A stretch of 53,563 bases of DNA from Candidatus Thorarchaeota archaeon. Lineage in GTDB: Archaea > Asgardarchaeota > Thorarchaeia > Thorarchaeales > Thorarchaeaceae. The position numbers and the translations under genes are program-made. The notes beneath the pieces were generated by a model. That model saw only the letters and a list, made by a program, of their open reading frames with translations. It did not search any database and had not been told where the DNA came from. Shown piece by piece: positions 34,501 to 49,924 of the stretch; position 1 is the first letter of the stretch; the number at the start of each line of letters is the position of its first letter. The stretch covers positions 1 through 53,563 of the forward strand of contig JBHLRZ010000023.1 of NCBI GenBank assembly GCA_048882045.1. The letters are read 5' to 3'.

Positions 34501-36291
34501 AATATCAGTGGAACGTACTTTGTAACACTTACTGCTTCCAAGAATGGAGTCAGTACTGCGGCTACATCCTTCTATGTCGTAATCGGTGCTGTATCAGCAG
34601 ATGTAGATATTTCTGGCCCCTCGCCTCCAGATGTTTTTTATTTCAATCAGACCTACACTGTAACTCTCTTCTATCATACTAATGATATACCAGGCGGTAT
34701 TGACGGGGCAGTATTGGATGTGACATATAATCCAGTGAGTGTGGTAGAATGGGTTGAAACCACTGATGGGTATTACAACGTATCCATTAGAGTTCCTGAA
34801 ATAGGATCATATTCAGTGTACCTACGATTCTCTAAATTTGGATATGATTTTGCTGAGATCTCATTCACATTTGATGTCATCGAGGTGCCAACAGTAATTA
34901 CCTACTTTGGGCAACGGACCACATATTATGAATCTCGAACATACGAATTCGCACTTTATTACAACTCGACCCTAGAGAATGGGGTTGTTGACGCTGACAT
35001 AGTCCCAATCGGGCCAATAAGAGATTTCTTCGAAACCACAGTTTTAGGAGATGGGTGGTATAACTTCTCTTTGACTCCCACACTCGGTAACTGGAATGTA
35101 ACAATCTGGTTAACAAAGACAGGATATGCAGAACAAGTGTTACGCTTTGAGATGGATGTTGATATGATACCGATATTACTGTCTTCTATGCATCCACTGA
35201 ACTCGACATATACACGATATTCTGAATCGATCCTCACATTGAGAGTTCTTCCGTTGGCGGGCGATAATTTTGAGAAGATCCCATCTGCTCTGATTAGATA
35301 CACTTTGACTGATGCGAATGATCCAGACAGCACAGTCGTGATTATTGGTTATTTCAGCGAGTTCGCCAACTATTATGAGGCAAAGATCACAGTACCGTCT
35401 GTTGGTCTTTATGAGCTTAGGATCACAATCGCAAAAGATCATCATGAGTCATTTGTTCAAGTGATTGTTCTCAATTCCGAAAGCTCTCCAAGTTCTGTCT
35501 TTGTATCCTATCTCAGTGCCGGCTTAATCGGTGCACTATCCCTCTTTGCCATTGTAGGTTCAATTTTTCTTGGCCAGAGATGGTATTCAGATATGACCTC
35601 AAAGAGAAGTCTTGAACTTCTTGGAATGAAGAATAGATTGGATGATGTAAGAAACCTACTCGGGCTTTTAGTCATTCAAAGAAATGTCGGATTGTCAATC
35701 TATTCCAAGATTTTGAAAGGAGGGTTTGAGGAAGCATTACTCAGTTCCTTCATTTCTGCCATTTCTCAATTCAGGGAGGAGTTCTCGATGGATGAAGCCA
35801 AATGGACAGCCATACCTCTAACTGAAGTCATAATGGCTTTACAGACTGAAGCATTCATCTGTGCAATCATCACTGTTGATTCTGCATCAATTCATCAAAG
35901 AGAGCAGTTGGAATCTTTTGGCCTTGAGATAGGTGGCTTTTTTGATCATGATGAAGAAGCAACTAAGCAGAGCCTTCAGACTCCGAAGCGCATTGAATTC
36001 TATCAGGAAAAGTTCGAGCCGATATTTGAAAAACACTTTGACATTAATTTGATGAAGAGATATGTTGGAGCAAAGAAGACACTTCCTGACCACTTGAAAC
36101 CAGTATCCGATGCTATCAAAAAATCAGCATTGGACCGTGGTGTCACACCGGAATCCATGATCAAGTCAGTTCTTGAAGCAGGTGTCGGTGAATATCATGC
36201 ATACTCATTGGTATTCGAAGCAATTGATGGTGATTATTTGATACCTAGTGAACATCGATTACCATTTCCTATAGACACTTTTGAATCCTAA
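31591..36291 (+). CDS. Giant single-pass surface protein: LamG-like domain, Ig-like repeats, TM, cytoplasmic longin-like domain
   Basis: LamG motifs GSISFWIKW, WYFIAISWN, GHIDDFRYY; repeats ending G.Y.+.+...K.GY; TM LIGALSLFAIVGSIFL; tail LLGLLVIQRNVGLSIYSK...LLSSFISAISQF. Confidence 0.82.
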   Translation: MRKVRRNRVVAIPLLIVLLALLPFLSFPVPSYDSLSNDIIGPDNKSHLFYTSDLKTGTLNPVLIQHTGTSSGMTTSDSARTDVDRYPSAEVYLPAGAPIDYFSGEGTGGYYLVGSSGSGDFGSVAGSISFWIKWDLTAPHGRFWGQHANFETRWTSNRLVLDWGSDTTAQGTKSDWLVDHWYFIAISWNETSNYLAIFWGDETTVPVEDYVTYGWTVSVVGLHTENNILNSIARVGEQVDGHIDDFRYYTSDRNLSDIQSDYLPVGIISDPTLSAHYQFENDLTDSVGDLDLQVSGATTISRDVPRSLRGWFGDQIKVTANDLRKLYVLNGTFDTGNPGTNEDWPEGTDGTYYADGWLARREVDSFLGRQRASYVEDFDSYVLLENEAYYIGSDFRHYNATEIYWYQDVENSALNNLFYFSMDYNYMRGPIGTSFSGIFDFRFEILNGSEIIWSWSIDPTNITQRQNWYSTGQVLVNMTDSPSSFSARVMLSVITPSTYIAIDETHPDLDGDATNGQFLTFYINNVELKSYEPLTGPQVDLQISSPETGLCSFSNAGVALLNHSVWEESVVPLVFSSNTTISYDFSAEFSKMFRYYNSSATTNLNNLGASYSIDFGQSANITFFTYVQSSPGVKDLGFVIFCPTDWENATVEDPFGSLVYVEENENVEVPSGYVNSVGWWKIEISAPNYAHSVYTEMYNGVDEWEESSTFFILDQIRCTVVIGSDTSLVASIDDLSISWYTPSSSLWASEIKGNATGSNVVSSEMTVGSSNTSAGAWHLEVSWTNGTEIALGLSNFQIHHQLNIIAATPHIDTQVDEIFTAAIYLYDQDSGTPILSNADVRGNWSAGDVQFSPNLAKGWWEADVNASLTGTGIYTMTVNATLAYHSMSSYTITIEITTVTIMTILGEQIIELEPDELYAVKLRFMFLDGLGIEDADVSVLSYSGPENGLSYGSGLSVIGQPGNYSIEFSGNISGTYFVTLTASKNGVSTAATSFYVVIGAVSADVDISGPSPPDVFYFNQTYTVTLFYHTNDIPGGIDGAVLDVTYNPVSVVEWVETTDGYYNVSIRVPEIGSYSVYLRFSKFGYDFAEISFTFDVIEVPTVITYFGQRTTYYESRTYEFALYYNSTLENGVVDADIVPIGPIRDFFETTVLGDGWYNFSLTPTLGNWNVTIWLTKTGYAEQVLRFEMDVDMIPILLSSMHPLNSTYTRYSESILTLRVLPLAGDNFEKIPSALIRYTLTDANDPDSTVVIIGYFSEFANYYEAKITVPSVGLYELRITIAKDHHESFVQVIVLNSESSPSSVFVSYLSAGLIGALSLFAIVGSIFLGQRWYSDMTSKRSLELLGMKNRLDDVRNLLGLLVIQRNVGLSIYSKILKGGFEEALLSSFISAISQFREEFSMDEAKWTAIPLTEVIMALQTEAFICAIITVDSASIHQREQLESFGLEIGGFFDHDEEATKQSLQTPKRIEFYQEKFEPIFEKHFDINLMKRYVGAKKTLPDHLKPVSDAIKKSALDRGVTPESMIKSVLEAGVGEYHAYSLVFEAIDGDYLIPSEHRLPFPIDTFES

Positions 36292-36337
36292 CTTCTCCGA
36301 AATGTCAATATGGCTAATTCAAGATTGCAGTTTGTCG

Positions 36338-37471
36338 ATGAAAGTTATCACTATCAAGTATTGGGGCCACATGGGTCGTCAGGAAGAAACCAAATTTCAG
36401 TGTACTGACCGTAAGATCGACATGATGATGAGAGCTGCTCAGAGAATCGACCTTTCAGAACTTTCAAACTGTACAGAAATAGATGTCTTGAATTTGAGCA
36501 CCAATATAATTGAGGAGGTCGACTTAGCTCCTTTATCGAATTGTCATACATTAACTAGCATAATACTTGAGAATAATCGTCTGAAAACCCTTAATCTGTG
36601 GCCATTGTCGAATTGCCAGTCTCTCGGGCTCTTGGATATCAAAAACAACCAATTACCCAAAATTGACCTAACTCCTGTATTCCTCTACGCGAACATCGAA
36701 CTTGATTCATCTGTTGTTATTTCTGCAGATTACATTCTACGATTTGCATTAACAAGTGAACAGCTGAAGAGTAGGTTCCTTCTGATTCGCCCAGACCGGG
36801 CTCCATGGACTGCAACTCCAGTGATACTCTGGAATTCGTACGAAACCCTCTCAAAGTCACTTCAATGGTCGGATATTTCTAGGCGAATTCACACAATCCT
36901 AGACCAAGTTCAAGAGCAAGACTGGTTCGGAATTCAGAGAGGCCTCATGATGGGTTTCTCTCTCGATGAATTATCTGGATATGATGGAGACCCTCGTGAC
37001 CTACTTTCTACAGCTACTCCTGACTTGGACTATATATCAGCAAGAACTGCGGTATTCGACAGAGCTGTGGAACTTCTAGACCATCAGGTGGAAGAGGGCG
37101 GATCCACTTTATTCTTAGACACAGAATCTATGAAGAGGACAAAGGCATCCAAGCTCATCCCGAAGATAGTAGAGGCTAGGAGTCGTGAGATGGAGAACGC
37201 AGTTGTTCCAACCAAAGGTAGTGTAGCGTTGATGAACTCCTTGTGGATGACTCACTACGGGTTCAAGATCCTCCAAGCGCTTGATGTGGGAACGCAGCAC
37301 TATGGTGATGGCTTAAATCAGATGAAGGAAAGCCTGGATGACCTTGGCTTTGATTTGAAAACAGAGGAAGTTGCTTCGATCGGATCAACTAAAATCTCGG
37401 ATCCAATAATTGCATCAGCAAGCTTGAAGAAATACATCATGCATATTGTTGAGAAGTCATACACAATATGA
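36338..37471 (+). CDS. Leucine-rich repeat protein
   Basis: About 3-4 24-residue LRRs (IDLSELSNCTEIDVLNLSTNIIEE, VDLAPLSNCHTLTSIILENNRLKT, LNLWPLSNCQSLGLLDIKNNQLPK) then a helical C-terminal region. Start uncertain. Confidence 0.82.
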   Translation: MKVITIKYWGHMGRQEETKFQCTDRKIDMMMRAAQRIDLSELSNCTEIDVLNLSTNIIEEVDLAPLSNCHTLTSIILENNRLKTLNLWPLSNCQSLGLLDIKNNQLPKIDLTPVFLYANIELDSSVVISADYILRFALTSEQLKSRFLLIRPDRAPWTATPVILWNSYETLSKSLQWSDISRRIHTILDQVQEQDWFGIQRGLMMGFSLDELSGYDGDPRDLLSTATPDLDYISARTAVFDRAVELLDHQVEEGGSTLFLDTESMKRTKASKLIPKIVEARSREMENAVVPTKGSVALMNSLWMTHYGFKILQALDVGTQHYGDGLNQMKESLDDLGFDLKTEEVASIGSTKISDPIIASASLKKYIMHIVEKSYTI

Positions 37472-38136: not shown

Positions 38137-39570
38137 CTAGAGATTTCTCCGTTCTTGGGTTTCATAATAATAGCAGACTCGAGAGAGGGCACTGACTGCC
38201 TCGTTCATGTTTCTAAAGACTGGGAGTCCACTTTCAACGAAGACATTCCATGCTTCAGTTCTCTGCTCCGGATAAGCAACCTCTGGAATCGCCACCAGCA
38301 CAGGTTTCTTTTCTCTTTCGACGACTCTCTTGCCTGCTTTTGCCATGACTTTCCAGAAGTCAACCAATACGTCCGCTGCACCCATGATGGATGCGGCTTG
38401 GTACATGTTGTGAACATCTGCTCCAATGATCAATGAATCGAAATTCGGTTCACTGCCTGCAAGACGAATCACCTCTGATGTAGTTTGATCTTGATAGTAA
38501 TCAGCTGCGAGGTCTATTGGATTTCCAAGCCCTGTACCCACATCAAGAATCAATGGATCCAATTGCTTGATTGTATCATCAGATGTCCGTGGAACATTTA
38601 GTCCCCTCTCAATGCACAAGTCTGTTAGAATAACACTAGTTCCTCCACTGATTGTAATGAGTCCTACATTCCTCGACTTTGGTTTTGGACTGAGAGAGAA
38701 GACACTAAGCGTAGCAAGCAAGTCTTCGATTGTATCGACTGTTATAACATTGGCTTGACGAAAGACCGCATTCCAAATCTGATTACTCCCTGCAAGAGCA
38801 CCAGTGTGAGATGATGCAGCCCGTGCTCCTTCTGTTGACCGACCCCCCTTTAGAACAACAAGTGGCTTCTTCAGAGCTACACGTTTCAGTGACTCCAAGA
38901 CATTCTTCCCATTCCTTGCCCCCTCAATATATGCACCAACTACCATGGTTTCATCGTCATCTGAGAAGAATTCTAGAATCTCTTGGGGTGTTATATCAAC
39001 TTGATTCCCAAAGCTGAACACTTTACTAAAACCCACTCCTGCTTCAACACCTGCGGTGTAGGTTGTAATGGCAACGCCTCCTGACTGAGATAGGAACCCT
39101 ACATCTCCAATGCGTCTCTTGATTGTAGGCATGAACGCAAAACCAATCTTTGGATACATCAGTCCCATGCAGTTTGGTCCCAATGCTCTCATACCAGTTT
39201 CATCGAGTATCTTGCGAATCTCAACCTCTCTCTGTTTGCCTTCTTCTGTTCCAAGTTCTGAAAATCCGCTAGTGAATATTGTGACCGCTCGTGCACCCTT
39301 CCTATGGCAATCTCTCAATGTATTAGGAACTACTTTGTATGGAACCCTAATAATGGCATAATCGATGTTTTCAGGAATTTCATCGATGCTTTCGAGAATC
39401 TTGTGCCCCCGAACTTCTCCGCCGCGTCTAGAAACAAACCATACCCTAAGGTCATGCTCCCACTGTAACATTGAGTGTGCCCAATAATACCCCATACTTG
39501 CAGATACACCGATAACCGCAACAGACTTGATGTTGAGAATTTCAGATATCGTGGGTTTCTCAGGGTTCAT
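38137..39570 (-). CDS. acdA: ADP-forming acyl-CoA synthetase alpha subunit (CoA-binding protein)
   Basis: SVAVIG, FTSGFSE, GPNCMG, SQSGG, SFGNQ, phospho-His ASSHTGALAG, SGG, NPIDL; no fused ATP-grasp beta domain. Confidence 0.85.
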   Translation of the reverse strand: MNPEKPTISEILNIKSVAVIGVSASMGYYWAHSMLQWEHDLRVWFVSRRGGEVRGHKILESIDEIPENIDYAIIRVPYKVVPNTLRDCHRKGARAVTIFTSGFSELGTEEGKQREVEIRKILDETGMRALGPNCMGLMYPKIGFAFMPTIKRRIGDVGFLSQSGGVAITTYTAGVEAGVGFSKVFSFGNQVDITPQEILEFFSDDDETMVVGAYIEGARNGKNVLESLKRVALKKPLVVLKGGRSTEGARAASSHTGALAGSNQIWNAVFRQANVITVDTIEDLLATLSVFSLSPKPKSRNVGLITISGGTSVILTDLCIERGLNVPRTSDDTIKQLDPLILDVGTGLGNPIDLAADYYQDQTTSEVIRLAGSEPNFDSLIIGADVHNMYQAASIMGAADVLVDFWKVMAKAGKRVVEREKKPVLVAIPEVAYPEQRTEAWNVFVESGLPVFRNMNEAVSALSRVCYYYETQERRNL

Positions 39571-39636
39571 CTAAGTCTCTCCAGATACGCCCGTGGGAAT
39601 TTCTCTTCGATTTAAGAGTACCTGATTGACAACAAG

Positions 39637-39773
39637 AAAAAAGGTGTGAGGAGATGGCGCCAGCGGAAGTAATGGGGATCGATGCATCACTGTACTCGCC
39701 TGCGGATACGAGCACGATAGTCCGTAGGGACTTATCGAGGAGAACCGATGTAGTTTCTTGCGGCTGACGCCAC
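39637..39773 (-). ncRNA. Putative novel structured small RNA
   Basis: 10-bp closing stem UGGCGUCAGC/GCUGGCGCCA (39772-39763 with 39664-39655) and two internal hairpins; mismatches become G-U pairs only on the minus strand; TTATATAT at 39805-39798 upstream; U6 tract at 39642-39637. Confidence 0.7.
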
Positions 39774-39797
39774 AATTATGAATATTAGTTGCTATTA

Positions 39798-39805
39798 ATA
39801 TATAA
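39798..39805 (-). promoter_or_regulatory. TATA box for the putative small RNA
   Basis: TTATATAT lies 26-33 nt upstream of the first paired base of the RNA, consistent with archaeal TATA-to-start spacing. Confidence 0.55.
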
Positions 39806-39893
39806 TATGTGTGTATATATGTTGCTTATTAGATTCTATATAGTGGATACTTGAACCAGTCTGTTAATATGGACTGAATGAGAACGATTCTCT

Positions 39894-42068
39894 ATGCGTC
39901 GCGCTTTGGTTCTATTACTATTGTTGGTCCTTCTCTTCGTTACACCTTTTGGCGATGACAGACTATTGGTCAATCCGCACGTGACCTACATTCCTAGCCA
40001 AGGACTTTATGATATTGAACGGAATTGGACACTCAATGTCGTTATTGTTGGCTATGAACAATCCGTAATTGACGAAGCAATTCTACTATCTGGAATGCCT
40101 ACTGAGAGGGTATACGTGTCTGAATCCGTTGATATTACGTACAATATCGATTACAATATTGAATATGCAGACACCACCTATTACAATGACCTCCATACAG
40201 TCATGCTGGAAAACTCAGTGAACGGTACTGGTACAGGAACGTGGTTGAATCAGACTGCGTTACAGTATCAGAAGGATCACTTGGATGAACCTCAGAGAAT
40301 CTTCTATCCGAGAGATGGAAGAGTCATTGACGCATTTGAGGTAGAAGACTGGCTCATAGAAAATCCTGTCGTAAATTCTCCTTCTTTGGGTTACACACTC
40401 TATCTAGTGAACTTCTCAATGTTTGACACTCCAGCCCTTGAGCATTGGTATGACTACCATCCAGTTGACCCTGACACTGGTGAGGAACAAGACTGGTTTC
40501 GACTTGAATGGGACAATGCATTGAATCCGGATGTTACCATGGACTACCCGTCATTTGGAGGGCGATACAACATTCATGTTGTTGATCCCAGTGCGCATCA
40601 GTGGTATCTCAAATGGTGCAAAATCTGGTGGAGCGAGTCCATAACTACAGAGTACGACTTCTGGACCCAAGACTTGGAGGATAAGATGGCTACTCTCGAT
40701 ATGGGTGTACCTGCAGATGTTGATACGCTGAATGTATACCTCAGCGAGTGTATATGGGATCCGATCAATCTTCTCTTCTTCCCATATCAGCATCAACCCG
40801 CAAAATATGTACAGTCTGGCAGACTGACCGGATTGGTCTTCTGTATGGATGTCTCATCTGGTGTTTCAATAGATAGTTTGGAATGGGTTACAGATGCCGA
40901 GATGCTGAAGAATGACTTGGAAGAACTATATCCATTCATAGACTGGACAGTAGATATCGAGTTCTTGGACATCAATAATGAGCCAGCTTGGAACACACTA
41001 TTCTGGATGCATTCCTATATTGACAGTGGTACAACCATCGTAGATGGGGGAGCGATGTTCGATACGATCTATGATGTGATGCGACCTCAATATGTTGCTG
41101 ATGATGAAAACATCAATGTGTTCAGTGTGGTCTTCATCAAGAAACAGATGGAAATGCATGTCTATGGAAGAACATATACAGGACTTGGTGGCCAAGGGCA
41201 AGCAGTGATATGGAAATCTTGGGAGCGGTACTATCGGCCAGATGGAGTGACACCAAAAGATGGAGTTTCCTCTGTTCAACTTCATGAAACAATGCACGCG
41301 ATAGGATTCCTACATACATGGCAACATGAGCAATATTCAAGCGACTTTTCATGGGGCCCAATGGGTTACTTCGCTTTCAGGCCAGGTACAGCTACATATG
41401 ACAAGAACTGGGTTCAGGGAACGTACCTCGATCAGATGGAAGCCATTCTGTGGGATGAGTTCCTGACTCAACAAGCCCTTCTTGGTGGAAGTGAACGTCC
41501 AGAAACATATCTGGCTGAACAGGGAGCAATAAAATCATTTGACGAGGCGAGATCGTTCTATAATCAGATGGACTGGATGTCTGCATTCGAAGCTCTTTCA
41601 GAAGCTAGGGACTGGATGAGAAGAATGATGTATTCACAGGTTGATGATACTCCTCCTGTGATACTGTCCTACAGTGTGAATCCTGAAGAGATTCCTTCTC
41701 AGACATACTATTACTCTGCAATTATCAGTGATAATCTTGCAGGAGTCGAAAATGCTTCTCTCTTTGTCCAGTTTGACGGAGGGGATATTTACAACTTTCC
41801 GTGTACAAACAGCAGTAACAATTGGTCTGTCACATTTACAGTTCCACCTGAGGTCGCTGCTCCGCCCCCTGTCAATCGTTTTCAAAACATGACAATGTGG
41901 TTAGTTGCCCATGACTGGGGTATGAACAGTGCTACCGGTGGCCGTATAGAACTTCTTACTCCATCCTTCAGAGATTTTTATGAACTTCTGTTTCCTATTG
42001 CAGTTGCTGGTGCGACATGTATTATCGTGATTGGTGTTGGAGTCTACCTCATGAGGAGAAGAAGGTGA
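39894..42068 (+). CDS. Surface-anchored zinc metallopeptidase-like protein (metzincin-type motif)
   Basis: Signal peptide; HETMHAIGFLH matches HExxHxxGxxH; possible Met-turn GPMGY; Ig-like domain (DDTPP); TM plus RRRR. Confidence 0.78.
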   Translation: MRRALVLLLLLVLLFVTPFGDDRLLVNPHVTYIPSQGLYDIERNWTLNVVIVGYEQSVIDEAILLSGMPTERVYVSESVDITYNIDYNIEYADTTYYNDLHTVMLENSVNGTGTGTWLNQTALQYQKDHLDEPQRIFYPRDGRVIDAFEVEDWLIENPVVNSPSLGYTLYLVNFSMFDTPALEHWYDYHPVDPDTGEEQDWFRLEWDNALNPDVTMDYPSFGGRYNIHVVDPSAHQWYLKWCKIWWSESITTEYDFWTQDLEDKMATLDMGVPADVDTLNVYLSECIWDPINLLFFPYQHQPAKYVQSGRLTGLVFCMDVSSGVSIDSLEWVTDAEMLKNDLEELYPFIDWTVDIEFLDINNEPAWNTLFWMHSYIDSGTTIVDGGAMFDTIYDVMRPQYVADDENINVFSVVFIKKQMEMHVYGRTYTGLGGQGQAVIWKSWERYYRPDGVTPKDGVSSVQLHETMHAIGFLHTWQHEQYSSDFSWGPMGYFAFRPGTATYDKNWVQGTYLDQMEAILWDEFLTQQALLGGSERPETYLAEQGAIKSFDEARSFYNQMDWMSAFEALSEARDWMRRMMYSQVDDTPPVILSYSVNPEEIPSQTYYYSAIISDNLAGVENASLFVQFDGGDIYNFPCTNSSNNWSVTFTVPPEVAAPPPVNRFQNMTMWLVAHDWGMNSATGGRIELLTPSFRDFYELLFPIAVAGATCIIVIGVGVYLMRRRR

Positions 42069-42229: not shown

Positions 42230-45200
42230 ATGAAAATCAAAAGGAATTTGTCTCTATTTCTTGTGATGGCGTCCCTTATCCTGAGTTTTGGATCACTTGG
42301 AACTCAGAATAACATTTCCAGTTCATCAGTCTCGGGTTCAGAACTGGTCAATCTTGGAGATGGCCAATTTATTGAGGTCGGACCTGACGAAGTCCTTGAA
42401 ACGTATTCACTATCCGATGTTCCGACAACATTGGAAGGTGAAGGTTCTCCGTTGGTCGTGTCCGAGTATGGGCAACGGACAGACACCCATGAAGACCTTG
42501 AGCTTGTGTACTATACCACAAACACAACCACGACTCAGACTGTTTCAGTTCCCCTTGGTCCACTCTGGGAAGGAACTGACATGGCTTTCGAAATAACTGA
42601 TCTCCAAGAGAATAGGACATACTTGACCAATCCTGGATTTGACTCAACGGCAGATTGGACACTTGGTACAGATGATGTCGGAACTCATACTAATCCCATG
42701 TCTTCTACAATAACTGGAGGTTATGTCAGCTTTCAGATGGATGGTGTCTACGACGGCGGATACTACCGCCATGACCTTGGTGACAGACAGTATGCTCAGC
42801 AGACAGTTAACACAGCCAGAGGAGATGTCACATGGGTTGGCGTTTCACTCGACTACTGGGTCGATGATGCTTGGGGTGGGTTGCCAATTGGTTTCTGGGA
42901 GCTTTATGCTCAGGTAGGATCAGCTGACAATGTGTCAAATCATCTATGGCATATGCAGTTCAGTGATGTCTTGGCACAACAAGTTTGGTATTCCACTGGC
43001 TTGATTGAGGCGAATCCTTCACTAATCACTTCAGATACTTTTGTCCTACAGATAGGGTCCAGGACAACCAGGTCATTTGGAAGCAATCCTCAGCTTTATC
43101 CTGAGGTGAGGATGGACAATGTTAGGGTTTTCATCAAGACACGAGTGCAGCCAAGTCAGGTTAACTTGGAAATGAACGGGATACCAGTGGCAAATGGCGC
43201 GACATGGAGTCTAGGTACAGTCCAAGAATCTGCCACCGTACCATGGAGTGGAATTGCAGTCAATGCAACTTTCAGTTGGACTCCAACTCCTGTGAATCCT
43301 GATCCAAATGAGGACATTCGAGTTAGCTTCTCTGCTGACATGACAGTGTTTGCTAGGAAGGTTGATCAGTCATCACTATTCGAAGCTGATGTACTAAGCC
43401 CTGGAACTCATTATGCTGTTTCAAACGCAAGTCAAGTTGATTGGATTACTTACTACTATATCGCAGTACCGAATGGATATTCAGATTATTTCTTCTTCAA
43501 TGTGAGTAAGTCTGATACACTAGTGATTGACACAGTATCTGAACCTCGCTTCCCCGGTGTCAATTTCCCATATTGGTCCACTACAGCTACCAGTCTCAAT
43601 ATCTCGGTTTATGATGGAGTTGTGGGGACTTACCAGAATGGCTTTTGGAAGATTACTGGTCACTCAGCGAACATAATTCAGGACCTAAGGATGTCAAGTG
43701 GAGCTGCATGGGATACAACCAATACGTACCGTGCAAATGAGAATGTGCGATTCAGAGCTTATCTCGACACAATTTACAATAGCGCGACTGTTAATTTCAA
43801 AGTCTATGATACTACAGGTGAAATATGGTCCTCGTTGAATGCAGTTGTGACTTCTGGAATCGCAGAAACAACTGACTTGAACCTTTCTGCATATACTGCA
43901 GAAGTAGGACACTGGACTGTTCAAGCCTTTGTCAATGACTCGATTTCGGGAAGTCCTATAGAGAATATTGGAGTGTACTCTCGGACCTTCACAATTGAAC
44001 ACGGATCTGAGATGAACATAGCTTATCCAAGGCAATCCATACTTACTTGGGAGCGAAACCTGACCTATGGTCAAGACATGCTTCTGCAGATCAGAGTGAA
44101 TGATTCTGATAATGGTCTCCTATTGCCTGAAGGCTCTGCAACATACAATTGGACCACAGGCACATACGCACTAAATGATATGGGGACTGGTGAGTACAGC
44201 GTTGTAGTGAACACTGCAGATCTTGGTACACCTGGCAGATATGTCATCAGCATCACATGGAGTAAACAATACTACGATCCCATCCAACGATATTTTGTTA
44301 TCAATGTCGTCGAAGAAACTACCCTTCAGTCCTCAAGTGCACCTGGCGTACAAGTACCTCGAGGCGATAATGCAATCTTAGAACTATTCTATGCAGACTC
44401 TCAAGGTTTTGGAATAATCGACGCGGCACTCTCATGTAATTGGACTGATTCTTCATACTCTATTGACCCTGTTATTGGGGAACCTGGAAACTACACCTTG
44501 TCTATCACAACTGGGAATTCGAATCTTGGAACCTATGCTGTTGTTGTAACCGCTCAACAAGACTATTACACAACATCAAAGGTCCTCTTGTTTGTCGAAG
44601 TCAGACAGATCTTTACCTCTGTTTCCGTATCACAGAACCAACTTGCACTCCCGGTTGGATATGAGCAGACTATCACATTGACCTATAGGGACACAGATCA
44701 TGACCTACCGATAACAGGTGCAGAATCATCAATCTCATGCAATTGGTCAGACTACACCGTTGTGGAAAGTGCACCTGGTGAGTATGATATCACATTCTTC
44801 TCCGAAGAAACTGACCCAATTCAGGATTATACTATTGTTTTCAACGTGAATCGGTTTGCCTATCAAAATCACACCTTCGACATTACTATCAACATAATCA
44901 CACATCTGACTTCCTTCTCTCTTGACAATCCAATAGAACCAACACCATATACTGGTCAGATAACCATCTATGTCCTCTACTATGATATTACGACATCATC
45001 AGGCATTGTAGGGAGTGATGTACTGATTTATGCAGAAGCCTCAGGTATTCCGTCCCTTCAGTTCACAGTTGTGAACGGTTCCATAGCTGGTCAGTACATC
45101 ATAAGAGTGAGGGCTGATCAGTGGGGTTCGATTGGGAGGAAAGACATTACCATTTATGCGAATTGGACGGGTCCGCAACCAAAACATGACAACAAGGTAC

Positions 45201-48200
45201 TGCAAGTAAGTGCGAGGGTGGCAGGCAGTCCAGCGGATCTGTTCATTGGAACGAATCCAATTGCCACGCCCTATGGAGAGGACATAACATTCTCAGTGGT
45301 ATATTGGGATATCAGCAACAGCACTGGAATTACCAATGCAACAGGTGCATACCCATTCAATGTTTTCTTCTTCATCGAGGTGTTAACACCTGGTCAGACT
45401 TTGATCCAAGACTTGATGACAATTACAGAATTGGGGAGTGGAGAATACCAGATTTCATTTGATAGCTCCCTTCTCAGTGGTCTAATAGGATGTCAACTTC
45501 GGATCTATGCGAATTGGACTGCTGGTCAATTACCGCTTTTTGAAAATCGGACTCTTGCAGTTACAGTCTACACGCGTTATAGACAGACAAGTGTAGTTTG
45601 GAATCCTTTGCCTACTACTCCGTATGGCGAAAACGTCAATCTAACATTCTCCTATGTTGATGTCTTAACTAGCCTATCAATTCCTGATGATGCACAATTG
45701 AGCTATCAAGTTCAAGAATCAGGACTCGTCTTGAGCTCAGTCTATCTTTCGGGAAGTCAGGAGTTCGTTCTGACTCTTGACACTACTTGGTGGAATAATA
45801 TTGGAACGTATACTTTCCACCTAGATGTTGTTTGGAACGGTGCTCCCTATTATCAGAACAGGACGAGTATCCCGATATCAATCACAATACGGAATAGGTT
45901 CACAAATCTTGACCACGGACCATACACGTCGATCCAATTCGGTAGTGACTTGGTCATTGTTTTCACTTATAGAGACCTGGATGATCAATCACTTCTCAAT
46001 ACCGGAGTATTGACTCTGGATGCTTCACTCTCCGGTTTCTATAATGTAGTCAATAATGGTGATGGAACATTCACAGTCACGCTGGACACAAGTGCCTTCG
46101 GATCTCTCGGAACTTACACTGTGAATGCAACGATGACCTATACAGGCACCAACTTTGGTCAAGATGCGACTGATTTCTTCTATCTTACTCTAATTGAAAG
46201 AAGAACACAGTTGACAAGTGATGTCCCATCTCTGGCTATCTTTTTAGAAGAAGCAATAATCTATGTTTCATACTTCGATGATAGTACATTAGTAGGAATT
46301 TCAGGCGCAACAGTGACTGCTACCTGTCCCAACACAACCCTCCAGCTAGGAGTAAATTACTGGGTTGACTCGCTTCCGGGTGGAGAGTATCGAATTAGGA
46401 TATCAACGGTAGCTTTGGGTAATTTTGGACAGTACACAATCACGATTTCTGCAAGTAGGTCAGGTTCTCCATTCTATCGGAGCAGGATGTTGGATGTTTC
46501 GATTGACGTAGTAAGAAGATACGCTACTATCTCGGTAACTCGTTCTCCTCTCACGACTCCGTACCTAAGCGATGTCCAATTCCAAATCAGTGCCATTGAC
46601 GATGTGAACAGTACAAGAATTCCTCTTACCAAATCTGTGCTGACCATCACTCATGGAGGAGGTACACAGATTCTGGATTCAGAGTATACCCTCTCCGGGT
46701 CAGGAGGATATTACTGGATATCATTCAATTCAACAATCATTACCTCGATACTTGTGAATGCCTATCCGATTACCATCCTCTTCCATTGGGGTGACATAGC
46801 ACCATACTACGAAAACTCTACCGCTTCGACACAGGTGACAATAACAACTCGCTTCACACAAGCAGCTGTATTATCGACACCTCCAGCATACTACTTCTTC
46901 AATATCAGCGCGTTGATCGATTTCAGAGATTACCTAACAGGGAATGGAATTGCCGCCGCAGATGTCAGTATTGGGTCAGTTAATTCATCATCATTCACAC
47001 AGTGGATTATTGACAACGGAGATGGAACATATCAGATTCTTGTTGACACAACATCTCTCTCTGGACTGGGACGTTACTTCTTCAAGGTAAATCTGACTTG
47101 GTACGGAAGCCCCTATTACACAAACGTCACAAACCTCAGCTTCTCAGTCGTGATCAATTCAGTTTCGACTACACTTAGTTTCGCACTTCCACAAGGTGTG
47201 ACCTACTATTTGGGTGACGAGATTCGTGCCAATATCACCTACAATGCAATAGAGTTTGGTGTGGGAATTACAGGCGCAGAGATTTGGAGCGATTGGAATA
47301 GCACCTATCCGACAATCGCTACTATAAATGAGATTGATATGGGGATCTATGAAATGATAATTCAGACCTCAGGAATGGATGCTGGATTATATTCATTCAT
47401 GATAAACGCCTCAAAGTATCTTCATCAAAACCAATCGATTCTTGCAGACATATTATTGGCGGCTGTACCTGTTCAAATAGAGCTTACCTTCAATCCAACA
47501 AATCCATTCTGGGGTGACTCAATCGACTTCACAGCCAATGTTACTGATGCACGAACAGGAGCACCTGTTTCTGGTGCCTATGTCAACCTTACAATTTCAT
47601 CAATCGATGTTGATATGATTGCTGGTGCACCTGGTATCTACACAGCTACAGTCCAGAGCTGGCAAATCATTGCAGGTGAGCATACCGTTACAGTAAGGTC
47701 AGTGCTTCTAAACTACGAGAGTAGGCAGAGAGACTTCCAGATACGAATTGATAAAATTGCATCAAAGATTGCAGGTTCAATTGATCCGCTCACCACGGTG
47801 AATGGATTGACACTTTCTCTTGATGTAGACTATCTCATCCTCTCCAACAGCTCTCCAATTGAGGTCGGTCTTCTTACCTATAGCTGGATTGGAGGAAGTG
47901 GACAACTCACATGGTCCATTGCTGATGGTCATTATGTGGTAGACTTTGTTGTAGCTGGTGTCCCGGTGGGTACTCATCAGATTCTAATACAAGCAAAATC
48001 TGACAATTTCAAGAGTGTATCATTGCAACTCACTGTTGAGATAACAGAACTCACTTCTAATCTAGTTGCAGTTTCAGATTTCATCATAACAGTATCCTAT
48101 GGAGATTTTGCAAACATCACTGTTTACCTGAATAATACTGATCTAAATTCACCAGTAAGCGGATCGTTTGTGCATTATGGAGTGGGTCCAGTTGTTGGAA

Positions 48201-49924
48201 ACCTAACTGAAATGGCTACGCCTGGATACTATACTGCATTAGTAAATACATCTGAATTGAGTGTCCAAGAGTGGCAAATCTTCATCAACAGTGAAACACC
48301 AGGTTACACTCCTTCACAGATTCAATTCACACTTAATGTTGAAGTGGTTGAAACTGAGATCGTACTTCTTACATCTGCCACTCTGAATGGATATTATGGT
48401 GACGAGGTGACCTTCCTACTCTTCTTCCGTGATACAATTTCGGATGTGGGAATTCCTGGGGCAATAACCAATTACACATTAGAGCAGTTCAAAGGGTCTC
48501 TGATTGACTTCAACAATGGAACATACTCTCTCACAGTGAATACTTCATTGGTCCTTGCTGGAAGTGTTCCTCACGACATTTCTATTTCGTTCCGAAAAGA
48601 CAACTACCGTTTTGCCTCAAGTCTAGTAAAGCTTCGAGTAGATCCAATTAGGACAGTTGTAGTCGGGGAGACAGCAACTGAGTTTGCTGTTTATGATGAC
48701 TATACAACCCTGTTTGGATTCTGGGATGACCTCAACAGCAGATGGATTACAGATGGGTTCGCCACAGCCACCTGGGATTTCGGAACAGTTCAATTAACAA
48801 ACCTCAACAATGGTTCCTATGCCTTTGGACCGACAGAGGCAGATTTAGCAACACCATTGCAAGATAGACCAGCACCATATTCGATCCGAATTACAATATC
48901 AAGGGGCAACTACTCTATTGGCGAAATTGAATACTTGCTAACGATACGTGAAATTGCTACAGATGTAACAGCATCAGTACTTCCTAGTCCAATCTTCGTT
49001 GGGCGACTATTCTTACTCAATTTCACATACTTGGATGTAGATCATGGTACTGCTATCGAAGATGCTGAGATCACTGTCATCTCTTCAAGCAATATCGCTA
49101 CAACTAGCTTGATTTGGGAAACCGAATACGATATTGATTACGGAAATGGTACATACACAATCGCTATCACTGCACCTGATCTTGCCTATTATAACCTCAA
49201 GATCATCTTCAGCAAGGTTGACTATCAGAGTTTTCAAGTTGAATTTGATATATACACTGATTTGACGCCAGAACAAGAACTACTTGTTGCTGGATTTCAA
49301 TTCAGTACAATCGCTTTACTTGCTGTAGCAGCCTTGGGTGCTCTATACTTCAGAGTACTCTCTGTTCCAAAACTACTGAGAATCATTAGACGGATGATTA
49401 ACGCGCTCTCGAAAGGTAGGATTCCTAAACCAGCTGATGTTCCACAGAGGAGATCGATGCTCCTCGCAATGATGAATGAAGACCTCCAACCAGTTGGAAT
49501 CCGAAAGTCTGTCGATGATGTAAGTCTGTCAACTGTAGACGTGACTGTCATGGATGTTGAAGAGCTACTGGAGGATTTGGCGGTTGTTGTTGGTCTGACA
49601 CCTGATGACATTGATACACTTCGTCAAGATCTTGATAAGATGCGACCAAGTGAGAGAGCGGGCTTTATCAATGAAGTCCTCAAACAGGAGAGGTCTCGAC
49701 GAGCCCGAGAGCTTGCTGAGGCAGAGCGCATTGTAGAGGAGGGCGTGCCTACTGCTGATGTAGAGGAACGTCTAACCGAAGAAGAACTTCTGCATCTAAA
49801 GGAGCGCTTACTAAAGATGGGTATCGAAGAAACAGAAGCCGATCTGATGATAGAACAGGCACGAAACCTGACTAAGGCTGAAATAGATGCACTTCTTGAT
49901 GAAATTGGAGGGATGGAAGAATGA
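42230..49924 (+). CDS. Giant (2564 aa) single-pass surface glycoprotein with tandem ~100-aa Ig-like repeats and helical acidic cytoplasmic tail
   Basis: Signal peptide; recurring TPYG....F.Y.D, G.Y.+.+.T..LG..G.Y, W.G.PYY.N; many sequons; TM IALLAVAALGALYF; about 190-aa charged tail. Confidence 0.85.
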   Translation: MKIKRNLSLFLVMASLILSFGSLGTQNNISSSSVSGSELVNLGDGQFIEVGPDEVLETYSLSDVPTTLEGEGSPLVVSEYGQRTDTHEDLELVYYTTNTTTTQTVSVPLGPLWEGTDMAFEITDLQENRTYLTNPGFDSTADWTLGTDDVGTHTNPMSSTITGGYVSFQMDGVYDGGYYRHDLGDRQYAQQTVNTARGDVTWVGVSLDYWVDDAWGGLPIGFWELYAQVGSADNVSNHLWHMQFSDVLAQQVWYSTGLIEANPSLITSDTFVLQIGSRTTRSFGSNPQLYPEVRMDNVRVFIKTRVQPSQVNLEMNGIPVANGATWSLGTVQESATVPWSGIAVNATFSWTPTPVNPDPNEDIRVSFSADMTVFARKVDQSSLFEADVLSPGTHYAVSNASQVDWITYYYIAVPNGYSDYFFFNVSKSDTLVIDTVSEPRFPGVNFPYWSTTATSLNISVYDGVVGTYQNGFWKITGHSANIIQDLRMSSGAAWDTTNTYRANENVRFRAYLDTIYNSATVNFKVYDTTGEIWSSLNAVVTSGIAETTDLNLSAYTAEVGHWTVQAFVNDSISGSPIENIGVYSRTFTIEHGSEMNIAYPRQSILTWERNLTYGQDMLLQIRVNDSDNGLLLPEGSATYNWTTGTYALNDMGTGEYSVVVNTADLGTPGRYVISITWSKQYYDPIQRYFVINVVEETTLQSSSAPGVQVPRGDNAILELFYADSQGFGIIDAALSCNWTDSSYSIDPVIGEPGNYTLSITTGNSNLGTYAVVVTAQQDYYTTSKVLLFVEVRQIFTSVSVSQNQLALPVGYEQTITLTYRDTDHDLPITGAESSISCNWSDYTVVESAPGEYDITFFSEETDPIQDYTIVFNVNRFAYQNHTFDITINIITHLTSFSLDNPIEPTPYTGQITIYVLYYDITTSSGIVGSDVLIYAEASGIPSLQFTVVNGSIAGQYIIRVRADQWGSIGRKDITIYANWTGPQPKHDNKVLQVSARVAGSPADLFIGTNPIATPYGEDITFSVVYWDISNSTGITNATGAYPFNVFFFIEVLTPGQTLIQDLMTITELGSGEYQISFDSSLLSGLIGCQLRIYANWTAGQLPLFENRTLAVTVYTRYRQTSVVWNPLPTTPYGENVNLTFSYVDVLTSLSIPDDAQLSYQVQESGLVLSSVYLSGSQEFVLTLDTTWWNNIGTYTFHLDVVWNGAPYYQNRTSIPISITIRNRFTNLDHGPYTSIQFGSDLVIVFTYRDLDDQSLLNTGVLTLDASLSGFYNVVNNGDGTFTVTLDTSAFGSLGTYTVNATMTYTGTNFGQDATDFFYLTLIERRTQLTSDVPSLAIFLEEAIIYVSYFDDSTLVGISGATVTATCPNTTLQLGVNYWVDSLPGGEYRIRISTVALGNFGQYTITISASRSGSPFYRSRMLDVSIDVVRRYATISVTRSPLTTPYLSDVQFQISAIDDVNSTRIPLTKSVLTITHGGGTQILDSEYTLSGSGGYYWISFNSTIITSILVNAYPITILFHWGDIAPYYENSTASTQVTITTRFTQAAVLSTPPAYYFFNISALIDFRDYLTGNGIAAADVSIGSVNSSSFTQWIIDNGDGTYQILVDTTSLSGLGRYFFKVNLTWYGSPYYTNVTNLSFSVVINSVSTTLSFALPQGVTYYLGDEIRANITYNAIEFGVGITGAEIWSDWNSTYPTIATINEIDMGIYEMIIQTSGMDAGLYSFMINASKYLHQNQSILADILLAAVPVQIELTFNPTNPFWGDSIDFTANVTDARTGAPVSGAYVNLTISSIDVDMIAGAPGIYTATVQSWQIIAGEHTVTVRSVLLNYESRQRDFQIRIDKIASKIAGSIDPLTTVNGLTLSLDVDYLILSNSSPIEVGLLTYSWIGGSGQLTWSIADGHYVVDFVVAGVPVGTHQILIQAKSDNFKSVSLQLTVEITELTSNLVAVSDFIITVSYGDFANITVYLNNTDLNSPVSGSFVHYGVGPVVGNLTEMATPGYYTALVNTSELSVQEWQIFINSETPGYTPSQIQFTLNVEVVETEIVLLTSATLNGYYGDEVTFLLFFRDTISDVGIPGAITNYTLEQFKGSLIDFNNGTYSLTVNTSLVLAGSVPHDISISFRKDNYRFASSLVKLRVDPIRTVVVGETATEFAVYDDYTTLFGFWDDLNSRWITDGFATATWDFGTVQLTNLNNGSYAFGPTEADLATPLQDRPAPYSIRITISRGNYSIGEIEYLLTIREIATDVTASVLPSPIFVGRLFLLNFTYLDVDHGTAIEDAEITVISSSNIATTSLIWETEYDIDYGNGTYTIAITAPDLAYYNLKIIFSKVDYQSFQVEFDIYTDLTPEQELLVAGFQFSTIALLAVAALGALYFRVLSVPKLLRIIRRMINALSKGRIPKPADVPQRRSMLLAMMNEDLQPVGIRKSVDDVSLSTVDVTVMDVEELLEDLAVVVGLTPDDIDTLRQDLDKMRPSERAGFINEVLKQERSRRARELAEAERIVEEGVPTADVEERLTEEELLHLKERLLKMGIEETEADLMIEQARNLTKAEIDALLDEIGGMEE

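Follow-up and report, generated by a model that had tools for sequence, protein, structure and literature searches.

This locus raises the question whether the DNA between acdA and its divergent neighbour holds an RNA gene of its own and, if so, what its product might do. From the letters of the window, by which we mean the complete analysed stretch of 53,563 nt from a Thorarchaeota (Asgard) contig, a structured small RNA that has no annotation and carries a promoter and a terminator of its own had been proposed on the minus strand. It was to be either an independent ncRNA of a new class or a riboswitch or attenuator leader of acdA. The described elements (TATA region at 39808-39795, closing stem, both hairpins, T6 run at 39642-39637) are all found at their places, and the distance of 66 nt between RNA and acdA, with the acdA ATG at 39570, is correct. 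The analysis confirmed by sequence comparison that the minus strand at about 39773-39637 is a single-copy gene for a folded non-coding RNA of ~135 nt without a match among the catalogued families.

The coordinates are collected in Table 1. A G+C-richer unit (39773-39654, minus strand) is bounded by an 11-bp helix, and reading along the minus strand one meets the promoter block, the G+C-richer unit, the tail, the T6 run, the element CTCTTAAATC, a short GGAGAG leader and the acdA start codon. We infer transcript ends that would give a length of ~133-137 nt, with a start probably at the 5′ strand of P1 (39773). A second copy of the promoter block, of the P1 pair or of the loop motif in its context was not found in the source genome (G000), and a repeat or mobile element was rejected because the RNA gene is single-copy there.

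Table 1 Features of the RNA locus and its two neighbours, in the order met on the minus strand.
Feature	Position in window	Strand	Remarks
up724	39894..42068	+	divergent gene for a 724-aa protein with hydrophobic N-terminus; no Pfam match
Promoter block	39795..39820	-	AT-rich boxes ATATATAC (39820-39813) and ATATTATATATTAA (39808-39795), 4-nt spacer
P1 5′ strand	39763..39773	-	GUGGCGUCAGC; pairs with 39654-39664
P2 5′ strand	39744..39749	-	AUCGGU; conserved AAAYUAC just before
P3 hairpin (hairpin 1)	39716..39736	-	GAUAAGUCC-CUAC-GGACUAUC; 4-nt loop variable
P4 hairpin (hairpin 2)	39692..39715	-	GUGCUCGU-AUCCGCAG-GCGAGUAC; loop conserved
3′ junction region	39665..39691	-	RGAUGC, AUCGAU (P2 3′ strand, 39678-39683), CCCC, variable linker
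P1 3′ strand	39654..39664	-	GCUGGCGCCAU; RNAalifold consensus and compensatory changes
3′ tail	39646..39654	-	UCUCCUCAC; single-stranded, conserved; proposed effector/seed
T6 run and T/C-rich tract	39631..39642	-	T6 at 39642-39637; likely archaeal terminator
acdA TATA element	39608..39617	-	CTCTTAAATC; outside the RNA, delimits the RNA gene
acdA	38137..39570	-	ADP-forming acetyl-CoA synthetase type; Pfam Succ_CoA_lig, CoA_binding_2, Ligase_CoA_2

The minus strand folds with -45.0 kcal/mol (z = -4.14), an energy equalled by one of 200 shuffled sequences, and the plus-strand fold has a z-score of -0.71, so that the energy is unusual on the minus strand only. This agrees with the earlier argument that the mismatches in the stems resolve as G-U pairs on the minus strand. 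RNAalifold derived a consensus of four helices (P1, P2, P3, P4) from a MAFFT alignment of 14 sequences, in which P1, an internal loop and P2 precede a three-way junction where P3 and P4 abut. In this alignment 97% of the cells are paired and compensatory double changes occur in 12 of the 31 pairs. None of 500 shuffles matched its pairing and compensatory score, and in a control where the partners were slid by 1-3 columns pairing was 27-43%, with 1-5 compensatory pairs. A second alignment of 22 sequences shows compensatory changes in 21 of the 31 pairs; it was fitted to a covariance model and is thus biased towards the structure. Over both alignments, 94-97% of the cells are paired.

Covariation among homologues, which had been suggested as a check, was found in three helices across 14-22 homologues. 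In P1 it affects 5 of 10 pairs and the sequence of the core, GCGUCGG/CCGRCGC, is nearly invariant; P3 has 4 of 8 compensatory pairs in the MAFFT and 7 of 8 in the model-fitted alignment, and P4 has 3 of 7 and 6 of 7, respectively. We regard P1, P3 and P4 as solid. P2 (AUCGGU at 39749-39744 with AUCGAU at 39683-39678) is paired by RNAalifold and has a shifted register in the divergent clade; because its sequence is nearly invariant in the main clade it is poorly tested, and it is considered likely but unsettled. An all-against-all covariation search for further helices or pseudoknots returned only clade artefacts, and a helix between variable parts of the P1/P2 internal loop was rejected as inconsistent across homologues. 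Alternative pairings had also been pointed out, and they do exist in the window sequence, among them several between AUCG-type palindromes. Their positions are not conserved, however, and the pairing of CCUACGGA with UCCGCAGG cannot be conserved since the loop of hairpin 1 varies between homologues.

These substitution patterns also bear on the idea that the region is a conserved DNA element, such as an operator or promoter region, or an overlooked small protein gene. A 71-codon frame with a TTG start (39775-39560) in the open-reading-frame list overlaps the RNA, and the DNA palindromes ATGCAT and ATCGAT lie inside the region. However, the indels among homologues are not multiples of three, and a small protein was rejected because half of the homologues (11 of 22) have stops in all three frames. 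The changes in the helices are compensatory and the G-U pairs work on one strand only, which is the signature of an RNA and not of DNA or protein. We therefore give the DNA or protein reading next to no credence.

Conservation is not confined to the helices. The P4 loop has the consensus UUUCCGCAGG (with AUCCGCAG in the window), and 20 of the 22 homologues retain its core UCCGCAG; in the 3′ junction region GAUGCAUCGAUCCCC is invariant across the main clade. Together with this loop, the fixed unpaired positions comprise AAAYUAC before P2, UAUCCUC in the junction, and RGAUGC and CCCC on the 3′ side. As the stems covary and many unpaired nucleotides are fixed, the pattern suggests that the RNA has a defined tertiary fold or contacts a protein or a ligand.

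None of the known families accounts for this RNA. Rfam 15 (4227 models, which cover riboswitches, ribozymes, and C/D, H/ACA and Hgc RNAs) gave no match in the whole window at gathering thresholds. At E <= 10 the interval 39500-39950 returned only a spurious 22-nt match to a viral pseudoknot in the acdA promoter, and four homologue loci gave no match at E <= 1. The original prediction had set the RNA apart from 5S rRNA, tRNA, SRP RNA and RNase P RNA, and this holds. In its size (~120 nt), its ~10-bp closing helix, its three-way junction and its distance to the TATA box the RNA is like 5S rRNA, but it lacks the loop E and loop C signatures. 5S rRNA was rejected because RF00001 (gathering threshold 38 bits) did not match within 39500-39950 at E <= 10; the true 5S gene of this genome (G000:C2:109912-110031) scores 64 bits. 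ARAGORN finds no tRNA in the window, and the 17 nt before the P1 3′ strand form no covarying T arm, so that a tRNA was rejected as well. RNase P RNA and SRP RNA were discarded because Rfam shows neither here and the genome has both elsewhere, on C1 (167 bits) and C11 (80.5 bits), respectively. As a separate observation, ARAGORN reports a tRNA-SeC gene on C17 and a 'tRNA-Stop' with a suppressor-type anticodon on C11, from which it appears that this genome may use selenocysteine and perhaps another recoding tRNA.

The putative transcription signals fit a separate gene. We assign the downstream AT-rich box (39808-39795) by its sequence and position as the TATA box of the RNA gene, and the upstream one (39820-39813) probably plays this part for the divergent 724-aa gene. 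The promoter block of 24 nt is nearly invariant in 14 genomes and the DNA flanking it cannot be aligned. Its TATA end lies 21 nt ahead of P1; where this genome encodes 5S rRNA, RNase P RNA and SRP RNA, the corresponding distance is 22-27 nt. By these measures, the putative promoter is of the BRE/TATA type and has the geometry of a stable-RNA gene. At the other end, T-rich or T/C-rich tracts follow the tail at ~2-35 nt in all 22 homologues and resemble the trailers of the tRNA genes in this genome. Archaeal termination needs no RNA hairpin, and the tract at 39631-39642 is likely to be the terminator.

The genus of the source genome, which includes the SMTZ1-45 and AB_25 assemblies, was represented by 27 genomes; BLAST detected homologues with 72-79% identity in 13 of these and in none of 33 genomes from other genera. 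A covariance model built from the 14-sequence MAFFT alignment detects the RNA in 21 of the 27 congeners and has no match in 58 genomes from 15 other genera of the family. A signature consisting of P1 plus the tail occurs in 15 of the 27 congeners and in none of 372 other Asgard genomes from 84 genera; the reversed control pattern gave no matches. When metagenomes were scanned with the pattern, more than 119 matches resulted, most of them random; of the 80 metagenome loci among the matches listed, three pass the covariance model and one of these is identical to a known homologue. With signals, covariation and these homologues, the proposal of a structured small RNA gene with separate promoter and terminator, so far without annotation, is supported.

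Two of the congeners lacking a model match, G001 (L237) and G013 (L236), have kept the gene order and the double AT-box promoter. A spacer of ~230 nt separates the promoter block from the acdA promoter in both, and it is otherwise unalignable; in G001 it retains the fragments ACAUGGAAUA and UUCCGCAG, and in G013 it ends in a T9 run. Here the locus seems to have continued to yield a transcript of some kind despite the turnover of its sequence.

Five of the 17 genomes from a second genus have, at the corresponding place ahead of acdA, an element that is ~100 nt long, or 70 nt in one case. It is located at L063:2744-2843 and also at L064, L069, L082 and L092 (genomes G088, G091, G089, G093 and G083). 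The element has a similar double AT-box promoter and the same P1 core (GCGUCGGCC/GGCCGACGC), and CGAYCCCAAAUU before the P1 3′ strand is common to it and the RNA described here. Its interior differs, with an internal unpaired CUCCACACACAC in place of the 3′ tail, and the 70-nt version is devoid of the middle hairpins. As the covariance model does not detect this element, the kinship is based on position and motifs only, and on these grounds we regard it as a putative diverged relative. In several other genera, the spacer between up724 and acdA is only ~130 nt long and has no RNA. A different arrangement was seen in other genera at L061, L062, L066 and L070-L077, in the region lying ~100-300 nt ahead of acdA. 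There the spacer adjoins a divergent gene, and the predicted product of this gene begins in the manner of PIN-domain proteins. That spacer has conserved blocks (ATTAAGGTCTTTCGCTA) and a possible closing stem GCUGAG...CUCAGC, and could represent a further structured RNA or else a long leader.

The constant position upstream of acdA leads to the second half of the original proposal, namely that the RNA is a cis-acting leader of acdA. Its fold would sense a ligand and control read-through of the T-run, or its tail would sequester the ribosome-binding site of acdA. The RNA is indeed on the strand of acdA and directly upstream of it in 21 of 21 homologues and in the second-genus variant. The linkage is thus retained in every homologue, and an orthologue of the 724-aa protein is found on the other side in 20 of the 21, which is wherever the contig reaches. 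As the homologues are close relatives with conserved synteny, this linkage is uninformative either way. The conservation pattern is aptamer-like: riboswitch aptamers of the purine class and similar ones, like this RNA, have a closing P1 and two hairpins meeting at a junction, and in them, too, the stems covary while nucleotides of the junction and loops are conserved. The palindromic repeats AUCG, CGAU and AUCGAU permit alternative pairings, and UCUCC is able to pair with GGAGA of acdA. Finally, T-runs do not exceed four residues in three homologues, and for this reason termination is possibly leaky.

There is, however, a conserved TATA element between the RNA and acdA. It lies 47-63 nt ahead of the acdA start codon at 28 loci that represent several genera, and every Thorarchaeota genus examined has kept it, even those in which the ~130-nt spacer has no RNA; because it is kept at this distance also where the RNA is absent we consider CTCTTAAATC to be acdA's own TATA. 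T/C-rich terminator tracts lie between the RNA and this promoter in all 22 homologues. The spacer from the tail to the acdA promoter (~20-55 nt) varies in length and sequence, and a conserved expression platform is thus not apparent. In contrast to known riboswitch aptamers, the RNA matches no Rfam riboswitch, and between it and acdA there are a terminator tract and the acdA promoter. Pairing of the tail with the acdA ribosome-binding site is ordinary (5-6 bp, -9.0 kcal/mol, rank 940 of 4565 start regions). In two genomes a C-to-U change in the tail goes along with a GGGA-type site, but a third, a metagenome homologue, combines GGGAG with an unchanged tail. The acdA promoter, the T/C tracts, the variable spacer and the ordinary complementarity all speak against a riboswitch or attenuator leader, and we consider this reading improbable; a classical riboswitch in particular is not favoured by the data at hand. 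Of the two options offered originally, it is the independent ncRNA of a new class that is supported.

Some further observations were made on the acdA surroundings. The consensus of the acdA TATA region is (C)TAC(T/G)CTTAAATC (window 39601-39620, minus strand; loci L058-L093) in many Thorarchaeota genera. Many congeners have an inverted repeat CGAGG-N8-CCTCG between this element and the ribosome-binding site, perhaps an operator or 5′ hairpin, of which the window has a degenerate copy. The neighbourhood is rich in large uncharacterised proteins: a 2564-aa ORF without Pfam match lies just past the gene for the 724-aa protein (42230-49924, plus strand), and downstream of acdA there is a weakly LRR-like ORF of 396 aa (36281-37471, plus strand).

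Of all unpaired stretches of the RNA the 3′ tail is the most constrained, and it is the most conspicuous candidate for an active part. Among 22 homologues, 19 share the tail UCUCCUCAC without change and three have a single substitution in it, and the spacer adjoining it is saturated with changes. The tail is predicted to be unpaired with a mean probability of 0.96. Within it lie complements of both GGAG and GGUGA, which are the cores of archaeal ribosome-binding sites; the tail motif is complementary to Shine-Dalgarno (SD) cores, and the 16S rRNA of a congener ends in GGAUCACCUCCU. The second-genus relative has a similar unpaired motif, CUCCACACAC, at a different position inside P1, which argues against a role of the motif in the terminator only. 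Our best guess is a trans-acting regulatory RNA with the tail as its seed. In such an RNA, the folded core would provide stability and possibly bind a protein or ligand, and the unpaired pyrimidine tail would pair with purine-rich SD-type sequences (GUGAGGAGA) in mRNA leaders and thereby block or modulate the initiation of translation. As the best explanation that we can offer, an independent gene for a stable structured ncRNA with a tail acting in trans on mRNA leaders has about an even chance of being right.

Trans-acting RNAs which mask ribosome-binding sites by C-rich unpaired motifs include RsaE/RoxS from Firmicutes and sRNAs from Methanosarcina mazei. The RNA resembles these in its length of ~100-150 nt and its structured body, in having a putative promoter and terminator to itself and C/U-rich motifs (UCCUC, CCCC and CUCCUCAC) that are unpaired and complementary to SD-type purine tracts, and in being lineage-restricted and fast-evolving. 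There are also differences: sequence or model similarity is not found (Rfam negative), and the seed would be a 3′ tail behind a long closing helix instead of hairpin loops. Compared to typical seed-type sRNAs, the core is far more conserved, and its targets are putative; one would sooner expect the many invariant unpaired nucleotides of the junctions and the P4 loop in an aptamer or RNP RNA than in a simple seed-type sRNA. The complement of the tail, GUGAGGAG, is not generally enriched at start sites (6.7% versus 18% for GAGGUGA).

For the trans-acting reading, one mRNA leader deserves attention. The sequence GUGAGGAGA(A) lies 11 nt before the ATG of a gene for a secreted subtilase of 1617 aa (Pfam S8) and forms a perfect 10-bp match to the tail, which places it at rank 11 of 4565 in a ranking that used crude start regions of one genome; ten start regions thus outscore it. 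All of the 13 congeners examined have it unchanged, but three congeners without a detectable RNA have kept the site as well. The leader has its own anti-SD sequence, GUUCUCU or GUUCUCC, and the anti-SD/SD hairpin that it forms largely explains why the site is conserved. In the second genus the subtilase leader is not complementary to the motif of the second-genus element, and a matching or compensatory change was not found. We consequently treat this putative target as a lead only. A second candidate, a gene on C15 for a 364-aa protein, was rejected, as conservation of the site was lacking and its mRNA appears to be leaderless. A secreted protease and an acyl-CoA synthetase of peptide fermentation would make a thematically coherent pair. 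Independently of the RNA, the subtilase leader (G000:C3:111070-111150, minus strand; L290; orthologues L242-L258) is long and highly conserved. It has a covarying hairpin CCAUCU...AGAUGG, the anti-SD-like GUUCUC(U/C) and an invariant GUGAGGAGAAAA before ATGAACAACCTGAAGAAG, so that this mRNA looks as if it were translationally regulated.

The conserved unpaired positions allow a further interpretation, in which the UCCGCAG loop, the C-rich junctions and the pyrimidine tail are protein-binding sites. An RNP or decoy RNA of this kind would scaffold or titrate a protein instead of pairing with mRNAs, its partner being for example a KH-type or Sm-type protein or a factor which recognises the helix plus CCUCC tail at the 3′ end of 16S rRNA. 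That many junction and P4-loop positions are invariant while the stems covary would fit, as would the P1 core GCGUCGG/CCGRCGC being fixed in two genera even though adjacent pairs covary. A helix followed by a CU-rich tail also superficially resembles helix 45 of 16S rRNA with the anti-SD tail, but the resemblance is compositional and not a sequence match. In 16S helix 45, CUGCGGA is the complement of the P4 loop motif UCCGCAG. Pairing with 16S rRNA was dropped as a candidate, as the duplex energies of all four conserved segments against 16S rRNA and its flanks are no better than those of shuffled sequences. Furthermore, a linked gene for a partner protein was not found, the restriction to one genus and part of another would be unusual for a core RNP, and the locus has diverged beyond recognition in some congeners. 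We thus rate an RNP or decoy function as rather unlikely, still ahead of a leader of acdA.

Within the trans-acting reading, the three-way-junction core might itself be an aptamer for a metabolite of peptide or acyl-CoA fermentation, which would gate the availability of the anti-SD-like tail. This is a speculative extension that we deem very improbable. If it were true, the RNA would be a ligand-responsive trans-acting riboregulator in Asgard archaea, coordinating a secreted protease with an ADP-forming acyl-CoA synthetase, and among archaea a core working as a sensor would be a rarity.

Most Asgard archaea have yet to be cultured, and a literature search found no description of regulatory small RNAs from Asgard archaea or Thorarchaeota. 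As judged from the comparative data, the family is genuine, new, structured, fast-evolving and genus-restricted, with transcription signals of its own. The locus turns over quickly: 21 of 27 congeners have a recognisable RNA, a second genus has a putative remodelled version, in others the sequence is unalignable, and the short spacers elsewhere lack it. This makes it useful for studying how such RNAs arise. With clear covariation, a defined promoter geometry and a near-invariant single-stranded motif, this new RNA family offers a concrete handle that can be tested.
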